DNA of 23,995 nucleotides, taken from positions 1 through 23,995 of the IMG/VR virus record IMGVR_UViG_2534681697_000018, one strand, 5' to 3'. The position numbers are program-made. Numbering within the stretch: the first letter of the stretch is position 1; each line of letters begins with the position of its first letter. The DNA comes from a virus (taxonomy: Duplodnaviria > Heunggongvirae > Uroviricota > Caudoviricetes). Below, one piece after another: positions 3,001 to 6,000 of this stretch.

Positions 3001-6000
3001 GGCGATAGCAGCAGGGTTAAGGCGTCCAGCAAGCTGGATTTACCCCACGCGTTCTCCCCAATCAGGACGTTGTTTTGTTCCAGCATCAACGACAAACGGT
3101 TGATACCGCGAAAACCCACAATTTCAACGCGCTCAAGAATCATATCCCCTCCAGAAATATGTGACTTATCCTTTACGCTGGCAGTATAACGGGAAAGGCC
3201 TTGCTAATACGTGATGACATCACATTTAAGCATGGCAAATGTCTGAAAAATGAGCGAATAATCGCGTTATACTCCCTCTTGCTGATAAGCCCGCAAAAAC
3301 AACAAAATCAAATAATTAGCATGATAAATTATTTTTTATTACGCCTAAAGGATTAAATCTTTTGCTTGCACTACACTGTCAATCAGACAAATGACTATAT
3401 GGGGCAACCCGCTGTTGCCCTAAATCAAATTTACTGGATTTATTTATCTGGTGAATGACTCGCCTTCGTTTTTAAAATAGCCGCGCATTATTTCCGTCGT
3501 CATTTTTTTACGACGACCCTATAAAACGACCATATTTTTCACAGGGTCAATTTTTAATTGAGGTGGATATGTTCAGAAAATTAGCAGCTGAATGTTTTGG
3601 TACTTTCTGGCTTGTTTTTGGTGGTCATTTTAACCCGGCGGTCACTATTGGTTTATGGGCTGGCGGACGTTTCCCGGCAAAAGAATTCGTTGGCTACGTA
3701 ATTGCCCAAGTTGTCGGCGGTATTGTTGCAGCGGCGCTGCTGTATTTAATTGCCAGTGGTAAAACGGGTTTTGACGCGGCAGCCAGCGGTTTTGCTTCTA
3801 ACGGTTATGGCGAGCATTCACCAGGCGGTTATTCCATGCTTTCCGCGCTGGTAGTTGAACTGGTATTGAGTGCGGGCTTCCTGTTAGTGATCCACGGTGC
3901 AACCGACAAATACGCTCCGGCAGGTTTTGCGCCGATCGCTATTGGTCTGGCCTTAACCCTGATTCACTTAATCAGTATTCCGGTGACTAACACTTCTGTT
4001 AACCCGGCGCGCAGCACCGCGGTTGCTATCTTCCAGGGCGGCTGGGCATTAGAACAACTGTGGTTCTTCTGGGTGGTGCCAATTGTCGGCGGCATTATCG
4101 GTGGTCTGATTTACCGGACCCTGCTGGAAAAGCGTGATTAATTAGCATTGGCATTTTATCTGCCCTGGTTGTTTTATCTTCGACATTACAAACCGCACGG
4201 GTATTGGTGGCGTCAAAATCGCTGAAGCGTTCCCCGAAGGCCGGGGCAGCCCACATGGATGTGGGCTGAGGGCGCGTCTTACAGGACGTTACCTCGCGCC
4301 CGACCCGGTTGCCGAAGGGGATAAGCTGAAGGTACCGCGCAGCGGCGATTTTGTTCGCCAGAGCCCGGGGGTGCAGGGCTGAGGAATCCCCAGAAAACGA
4401 GACAGACATAGCATTATGTGATCTACTGATTTGTGCCAACAATTCAATGAGATCACTGCTATGCCTGTTCATAAAGTATGTCAGAATTTCTTCCGGGATG
4501 CCTTAGCACCATTTCATCAGTACCGACAAAATGCCCTGATGGATGCCACAGTGGCGTTAATCAACGGAGCATCTCTGACGCTGACCAGTATCGGACGTTT
4601 TTTGCCGGGTAATGCACAAGTTAAGAATAAGATCAAACGTATTGATCGCCTCATGGGTAATGAGGCGCTCCATCGCGATATTCCAATGATTTTCAGGAAT
4701 ATCACTTCAATGCTGACACGGCAGTTATCTTTATGTGTAATAGCCGTAGACTGGAGTGGCTATCCCTCCCAGGAGCATCATGTTCTTCGTGCCAGCCTTC
4801 TGTGTGACGGGCGTTCCATTCCGTTATTGAGTAAGGTTGTTCCTTCTGAAAAACAAAATAATCCATTGATACAACATGATTTCCTTGATTCCCTTGCTCA
4901 ATCCCTGCCCCCCGATGCCAGGGTTATTATTGTCACGGATGCTGGATTTCAGAGCGCATGGTTTCACCATATTACTTCTCTGGGCTGGGATTTTATTGGT
5001 CGGATCAGAAATAACGTTCAGTATTGCCTCGATAACGCGCCTGAAAGATGGTTAAAAGTGTCGGATAGCCCTGAATGTAAAACACCGGAATATATGGGGG
5101 CTGGAAGGCTGGTTAAAGAAAGGAAAAAAAGCATCCGGGGGCATTTTTACACCTATAAGAAATCGGCAAAAGGGCGAAAAAAGAAACGTTCGAAAGGTCA
5201 GAGTGGTTTAAACAAAACAGACAAAGAACAGAGCAAATCAGCAAAAGAAGCCTGGTTGATCTTCAGCAGTACAAATGACTTCAGAGCGCGAGAAATCATC
5301 AAGTTATACAGTCGGCGAATGCAGATTGAGCAAAACTTTCGTGATGAAAAGAACGGGCGCTTCGGATTTGGTCTTCGGGCCAGCAAAAGTCGTTCAACAG
5401 GAAGAATTCTGGTTCTGAGTCTGCTGGCAACGTTGAGCACTATCGTAATGTGGTTACTCGGTTATCACGCTGAAAATAAAGGGTTACACCTGAAATATCA
5501 GGCTAACAGCATTAAATCCCGGCGGGTTATCTCATATCTGACGTTAGCGAAGAATGTTCTTCGACACTCGCCACTTATTTTAAGACGAACAGTACTGAGC
5601 ACAGTTCTAAACCATCTGTCCAGAACCTACCGAAATATGGTGCTGGTTTATTAGCAGTAATTTTGTGGGGATCCCTCAGCCCTGAGGGGGCTCCCGGAAA
5701 CGTCCCACGGTGCGAGCTGCATCTTAAATCAGGTGTGGTAAAACTGTTTGACCCTCTCACTCCGGAACTGTTACGGGCGCTAATCCGCGAAATGAAAGGG
5801 GGTATCCGATGATAACGCTGCCGACCGGTACCAAAATCTGGATCATCGCTGGCATCACAGATATGCGTTGTGGCTTCAATGGCCTGGCTTCGAAGGTGCA
5901 GAACACGCTGAAAGATGACCCGTTCTCCGGGCATATCTTCGTCTTCCGGGGCCGCAGTGGCAAAATGGTGAAAATACTGTGGGCCGATCGTGACGGGTTA

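Follow-up and report, generated by a model that had tools for sequence, protein, structure and literature searches.

In the 23,995-nt stretch of DNA analysed here (IMG/VR record IMGVR_UViG_2534681697_000018, positions 1 to 23,995; hereafter the window), aqpZ, the gene for the water channel aquaporin Z, carries an in-frame internal deletion. The window is AERN01000091.1 of assembly GCA_000193915.2, and its protein is labelled Shigella boydii by NCBI. It was confirmed that the short aqpZ is a real, lineage-specific allele of one S. boydii lineage. Taken as a whole, the evidence makes it very probable that this orthologue of aqpZ lost a segment between two short repeats, that its product is dead, and that the loss is neutral decay. 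The allele and its expression signals are as follows.

3569..4141, plus strand: aqpZ allele with a 123-bp deletion, 190 codons and a stop; orthologue of E. coli aqpZ (b0875) without codons 20-60
3560..3566, plus strand: Shine-Dalgarno-like GAGGTGG, same as in E. coli; alignment columns 1-31 are invariant
3144..3568, plus strand: intergenic region between ybjD and aqpZ, presumed site of the promoter; 425 bp, with three single-nucleotide polymorphisms and no indel relative to E. coli O145

The open reading frame (ORF) runs from the ATG at 3569 to the TAA at 4139-4141, and its product has 190 residues against 231 in E. coli AqpZ. The start codon is identical to that of E. coli, and the expression signals look intact. 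A search of solved structures matched the product to E. coli AqpZ (1RC2, 231 residues) with E = 2e-114 in two blocks, in which query residues 1-19 correspond to chain residues 1-19 and query residues 16-190 to chain residues 57-231. In a MAFFT alignment with aqpZ of E. coli O145 RM9872 as the reference, there was one 123-bp gap and no further indel, and translation of the reference identified the missing peptide as residues 20-60. The initial annotation had read an in-frame internal deletion of about 123 bp and had named about 41 residues as missing; the single gap bears out the former, and the named residues equal the translated reference letter for letter. The pairwise alignment that it had proposed as a check, made here with O145 aqpZ and 1RC2, shows that the reference is the longer form (231 residues) and confirms the deletion. 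The gap was also observed at the level of genomes. Megablast with window positions 3400-4300 matched aqpZ over at least 80% of the query in 5,380 of 5,426 complete RefSeq E. coli genomes, and among the matches listed the 901 query bases covered 1024 genome bases in two pieces in 30 of 30 cases.

Orthology is also shown by the surroundings and by protein families. The gene order macA-ybjX-ybjD-aqpZ-lysO is the orthologous chromosomal position. The product has Pfam PF00230 (MIP family) on record and scores 324.5 bits against the NCBIfam aquaporin Z equivalog NF003838 (cut-off 256), matching profile positions 59-230 only, and 163.9 against the general MIP model TIGR00861, which is under the cut-off of 171.25. 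Save for eight point differences, the ORF in the window is the O145 sequence minus one repeat copy and the spacer. Three of these differences are non-synonymous, one being specific to O145, and eight are too few for a test of relaxed selection. Compared with K-12 AqpZ, the 190 retained residues contain two substitutions, V81F and F156Y.

3686..3688, plus strand: codon TTC of V81F, a lineage-specific substitution
3911..3913, plus strand: codon TAC of F156Y, a rare polymorphism at a variable position, common to 43 E. coli genomes

Position 81 is V or I only in 50 enterobacterial AqpZ sequences, and a 35-mer carrying V81F was found in none of the 5,426 complete E. coli genomes. V81F is unusual and non-conservative; it is compatible with relaxed constraint and proves nothing.

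The ends of the deletion lie in a direct repeat, of which one copy is left.

3619..3624, plus strand: retained copy of the direct repeat TGGTGG, which is the deletion junction; it encodes G18-G19, and the breakpoint can be placed at seven equivalent positions

In the 696-bp reference coding sequence (CDS), TGGTGG occurs in two copies only, 123 bp apart, within ...GTTTT TGGTGG CTGT... at nucleotide 51 and ...ATTTC TGGTGG TCAT... at nucleotide 174; the window retains one copy, followed by TCAT. The homology is 6 bp exact, and 9 of 10 bases when it is extended to the left. As a background, every possible deletion in the reference CDS was enumerated. Only one of 405 distinct 123-bp deletions had junction homology of at least 5 bp, and this was the observed one; among 106,300 distinct deletions of 30-300 bp, 45 (0.04%) had at least 6 bp. 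Because the enumerated deletions so rarely show such junction homology, the repeat-to-repeat geometry is not due to chance. This supports the earlier proposal that the junction lies between two GG-encoding stretches and arose by microhomology, with homology far beyond chance expectation. Judging from the product, the junction would bear the signature of slipped mispairing, which deletes DNA between short direct repeats. Specifically, a single RecA-independent deletion between the 6-bp TGGTGG repeats, by replication slippage or misalignment, would have taken out the spacer along with one repeat copy. Spontaneous deletions between short direct repeats, attributed to slipped mispairing, are reportedly found in the classic lacI deletion spectra that Albertini, Farabaugh and Miller obtained in E. 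coli. The aqpZ deletion resembles these: it begins and ends in a short direct repeat of which a single copy survives, it spans about 100 bp, and its homology far exceeds chance. Nothing sets it apart from them, and at 6 bp its repeat is one of the shorter ones in the range.

The exact 190-residue protein is already public as EFW53264.1 and others, annotated as 'aquaporin Z' under the labels Shigella boydii and Escherichia coli. A byte-identical 573-bp ORF was found at eight loci from independent assemblies, the window included; the other carriers are the complete genome CP026875.1 (5.16 Mb), two more NCBI drafts and four Logan assemblies (runs SRR1811688, ERR200285, SRR4787083 and DRR015921). 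The allele is identical in all recovered carrier assemblies, and a single deletion event would underlie it. We built a junction-centred 42-mer from window positions 3601-3642 such that full-length alleles cannot seed a megablast match, and none of the 5,426 complete RefSeq E. coli genomes contained it. A 37-mer spanning the junction had no match in GTDB species representatives or in JGI metagenome contigs. Of 8,000 homologous protein clusters, the 120 closest almost all have a length of 231 residues. This near-universal length, together with the absence of the junction from the E. coli, GTDB and JGI sets searched, indicates that the short form is derived and confined to one Shigella lineage. 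An ancestral short form, or one brought in from another species, was considered and rejected: the flanks are 98.9% identical to and collinear with E. coli, and the homologues have 231 residues. In the literature searched (aqpZ in Shigella and among pseudogenes; carrier accessions and strains), no description of this S. boydii allele was found, nor a serotype or clade for the carrier strains.

To describe which structural parts are lost, we used as a control an AlphaFold model of full-length AqpZ made with a 50-sequence alignment. Its helices are residues 2-28, 35-58, 64-72 (half-helix B), 78-104, 131-152, 161-181, 187-197 (half-helix E) and 205-227. By these boundaries, helix 1 is shortened by its final nine residues (its last third), loop A and helix 2 are lost completely, and loop B lacks its first two residues. 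What stays of helix 1, its first 18 residues (2-19), is fused directly to H-F-N-P-A. The initial annotation had placed helix 1 and loop A in the deletion, together with most of helix 2. The loss of loop A stands; helix 1 loses only its last third, and helix 2 is lost entirely. The other two structural statements of that annotation, that Phe43 is removed and that both NPA motifs are retained, agree with our data, as Phe43 falls within the deleted residues 20-60 and both motifs are present.

3632..3640, plus strand: first NPA motif (AAC CCG GCG), read from the sequence; codons 22-24, residues 63-65 of the full-length protein, two residues past the junction
4001..4009, plus strand: second NPA motif, read from the sequence; codons 145-147, residues 186-188 of the full-length protein

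The aromatic/arginine (ar/R) selectivity filter of AqpZ consists of Phe43, His174, Thr183 and Arg189, and Phe43 is located on helix 2 (PMC6912568, PMC10867769). F43 is conserved in 49 of 50 enterobacterial homologues. Thus, the allele resembles E. coli AqpZ (b0875; 1RC2; MIP PF00230) as its orthologue with both NPA motifs and with H174, T183 and R189 present, and differs from it in lacking residues 20-60; the ar/R filter is incomplete because Phe43 is gone. In addition to Phe43, the loss of helix 2 would take away pore lining and its contribution to monomer packing. On SDS-PAGE, wild-type AqpZ migrates as a tetramer that resists SDS. A 19-residue Kyte-Doolittle scan gave four hydrophobic peaks in the 190-residue product instead of the six in the full-length protein, so that the six spans expected of an aquaporin are not found; the fused N-terminal 33 residues stay under the hydropathy threshold and are flanked by R3/K4 and R34/K38. 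AlphaFold predictions with equal-depth alignments gave a mean predicted local distance difference test (pLDDT) score of 68.5 and a predicted template modelling (pTM) score of 0.64 for the 190-residue protein, and 81.8 and 0.83 for the 231-residue protein. In the 190-residue model, helix 2 is missing and the N-terminus forms a stub helix of 18 residues; the junction residues 18-20 have pLDDT below 50. AlphaFold is no measure of stability, and the modestly lower confidence of the short model is weak evidence on folding.

The missing helices and Phe43 make a strong structural case that channel function has probably been lost. The lost piece would correspond to about one crossing of the membrane outwards and one back inwards, with basic residues flanking the remnant; because about one crossing in each direction is lost, helices 3-6 could keep their native orientation. 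A monomer would then have four of the six wall helices, and its pore would be open on one side. The most likely product would be translated but misfolded, degraded or non-conducting, which is in line with the initial annotation's reading of an expressed but probably non-functional channel. As neither the six helices nor a complete ar/R filter is found, we class the allele as a decayed member of AqpZ and not as a working channel. It is a probable functional pseudogene that is still annotated as 'aquaporin Z'. AqpZ appears to be dispensable in the laboratory. As relayed in PMC7285182, Soupene 2002 and Mallo & Ashby 2006 observed a contribution of AqpZ to water permeability in stationary phase only, not in exponential growth, and PMC6912568 relays from Calamita 1998 that competitiveness was reduced at low osmolarity. 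The loss would be most simply explained if a gene that the cell can do without had decayed neutrally while the genome underwent insertion sequence (IS)-driven reduction.

Lesions of aqpZ have been observed elsewhere. In Shigella, Feng et al. 2011 (PMC3218036, Table S1) scored aqpZ as functional in S. boydii Sb227, S. dysenteriae and S. flexneri 2a and 5, and as 5'-truncated (residues 1-129) in S. sonnei. The truncation in S. sonnei means that aqpZ was independently hit in another Shigella lineage. The deletion shares with Shigella gene decay in general (PMC3218036; Hawkey et al. 2020, PMC7373316) that it is a lineage-specific lesion of a gene that is intact across E. coli, and that it lies among IS insertions. 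It differs in being in frame, unlike the lesions caught by usual pseudogene calls, and for this reason it escapes calls based on frameshifts, stops or IS insertions. Alignment of odd-length clusters also revealed sporadic indels among E. coli and related sequences. They comprise a tandem duplication of 14 residues surrounding the first NPA motif (P0016, E. coli), an 18-residue deletion in which this motif is lost (P0054, E. coli), and three 14-residue deletions that differ from one another, one in E. coli (P0097) and two in metagenome or run assemblies (P0025 and P0091, the latter between two GG pairs). Like the S. boydii deletion, these alleles are in frame; they affect 14-18 residues, and several are near the GG...GG stretch and loop B. 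In contrast to these singleton or rare alleles, the S. boydii deletion is larger (41 residues) and is common to at least eight assemblies. The rare alleles suggest that the glycine-rich region of aqpZ around loop B is a slippage hotspot, and the repeat-rich coding sequence is evidently prone to such indels. In a separate observation, P0104, which carries an E. coli name, has a double frameshift with an altered stretch at residues 63-84.

Several alternatives to a decayed gene have to be considered. If the strain were truly full-length, the draft contig would have collapsed 123 bp between the repeats. The window is indeed a draft; elsewhere it has single-base homopolymer differences from all other carriers, and its join past the downstream IS is unlike that in the complete genome CP026875.1. 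However, a 6-bp repeat is far too short for an assembly collapse, and the identical ORF recurs in one complete genome, three NCBI drafts (the window among them) and four Logan runs. This identity in eight independent assemblies excludes an assembly artefact for practical purposes and answers the caveat on assembly error in the initial annotation, and we regard a collapsed contig as vanishingly improbable. A second alternative is that the shortened protein still functions, either as a reduced water channel with four helices and two half-helices or through a new activity under selection, such as a dominant-negative partner or a leaky pore. Some observations weigh against decay and in favour of function. 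The reading frame is preserved, both NPA motifs are in place, as are H174, T183 and R189 out of the four ar/R residues, and neither the ribosome-binding site nor the upstream region is damaged. No second disabling mutation was seen in any of the eight carrier ORFs; a gene dead for long might have been expected to gather one, although the lineage might be young. An even number of crossings is removed, so that the topology of helices 3-6 can persist, and the 190-residue model still overlays 1RC2 in a native arrangement with a template modelling score (TM-score, by query length) of 0.90; according to this model, a partly native fold of the remnant may remain compatible with the data. As to the origin of the deletion, we infer slippage from the end product alone. 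On the other hand, helix 2 lines the pore and bears the near-invariant Phe43, the confidence of the model is lower throughout, retained parts included, and the allele is limited to one lineage of a pseudogene-rich genome. Moreover, no natural 190-residue AqpZ-like architecture occurs among the listed 120 closest of 8,000 scored homologues, and the shorter homologue entries that were aligned are singleton indel alleles or N-terminally shortened sequences. Thus, we consider a functional short protein very unlikely. A particular form of it, a stable 'minimal' aquaporin remnant that inserts, assembles and either conducts with altered selectivity or modifies GlpF/AqpZ-type tetramers, and that is kept by selection, strikes us as exceedingly unlikely; if true, it would be a minimal channel without Phe43 whose pore faces lipid or a neighbouring protomer.

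It is also conceivable that the loss of AqpZ is pathoadaptive in Shigella, that is, positively selected and not neutral. With the truncation in S. sonnei there are at least two independent lesions in Shigella lineages, as this would require. However, aqpZ was scored functional in Sb227, S. dysenteriae and S. flexneri 2a/5 (PMC3218036), two lesions among hundreds of Shigella pseudogenes are what drift would be expected to give, and sporadic indel alleles occur in ordinary E. coli too. A virulence-related aqpZ phenotype did not turn up in the searched literature. We therefore think positive selection for the loss improbable and prefer neutral decay.

Both the mutational mechanism and the evolutionary setting, Shigella gene decay, are textbook; what is new is small, namely this allele, which did not turn up in the literature searched and has gone unflagged because it is in frame. 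Shigella pseudogene counts based on frameshifts, stops and IS insertions will overlook such in-frame lesions. As the second independent aqpZ lesion in Shigella after that of S. sonnei, it bears slightly on whether loss of the water channel is tolerated or favoured in an intracellular lifestyle. The junction 42-mer could mark this S. boydii clade for typing. The practical value is small, and neither a new mechanism nor a long-standing question is opened.

The neighbourhood of aqpZ, with IS insertions on both sides, is also in decay. Window positions 106-4378 are collinear with E. coli O145, and CP026875.1 (L002) runs on into lysO-hcp-hcr past the IS that follows aqpZ.

4379..5679, plus strand: IS4-family element, inserted 237 bp after the stop codon of aqpZ; its terminal inverted repeats, CTGAGGAATCCCC / CTGAGGGATCCCC, are IS10-like

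This element is part of the context of decay and is separate from the aqpZ lesion. In CP026875.1 the same element is simply inserted, has duplicated about 10 bp of its target, and is followed by lysO-hcp-hcr. In the window, the region to the right of it (5680-7800) has an IS66-family element followed by Mu-like phage tail genes, unlike CP026875.1 (L002 12110 onwards). Either the contig is chimeric across the repeated IS, or an IS-mediated rearrangement took place in the strain. The transposase gene of the IS4-family element has a run of six C at 4908-4913 and an intact ORF of 407 residues in the window, and a run of five C with the ORF split into 197 and 186 residues in the CP026875.1 copy (L002 ~11340). 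Either one of the assemblies has a homopolymer error here, or one copy of the IS is truly frameshifted.

On the other side of aqpZ, macA is a second inactivated gene within 3.5 kb. A macA fragment of about 95 residues lies at 93-380 on the minus strand, and positions 1-105 of the window are the end of an IS4-type element; they are unmatched to the macA region of E. coli and collinear in CP026875.1, in which an IS4-type element is inserted in macA and the remaining macA and macB are on its far side. At the 3' end of ybjX (~1466-1468), where it overlaps ybjD, the window has an extra C (GGCCCAC versus GGCCAC) relative to all seven other carriers, which shifts the last ybjX codons and lengthens the overlap with ybjD; this is probably a homopolymer sequencing error of the draft. 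The gene adjoining aqpZ, ybjD (1485-3143, minus strand), is an intact OLD-family (AAA/TOPRIM) nuclease gene of 552 residues, and its N-terminus has weak NCBIfam matches to anti-phage ATPases (MADS3, PtuA), all far under the cut-offs.

The rest of the window, 7892-23995, is a Mu-like contractile-tail module that includes Gp36, tail S, sheath, tube, Gp41, DNA circulation and baseplate J genes and others. Megablast of this module gave zero matches in 50,697 phage records, and the module is a prophage remnant with no close relative among sequenced free phages. An IS3-family element at 9817-10973 on the minus strand interrupts it. The tail region is present in 54 of the 5,426 E. coli genomes, with 94-98% identity.

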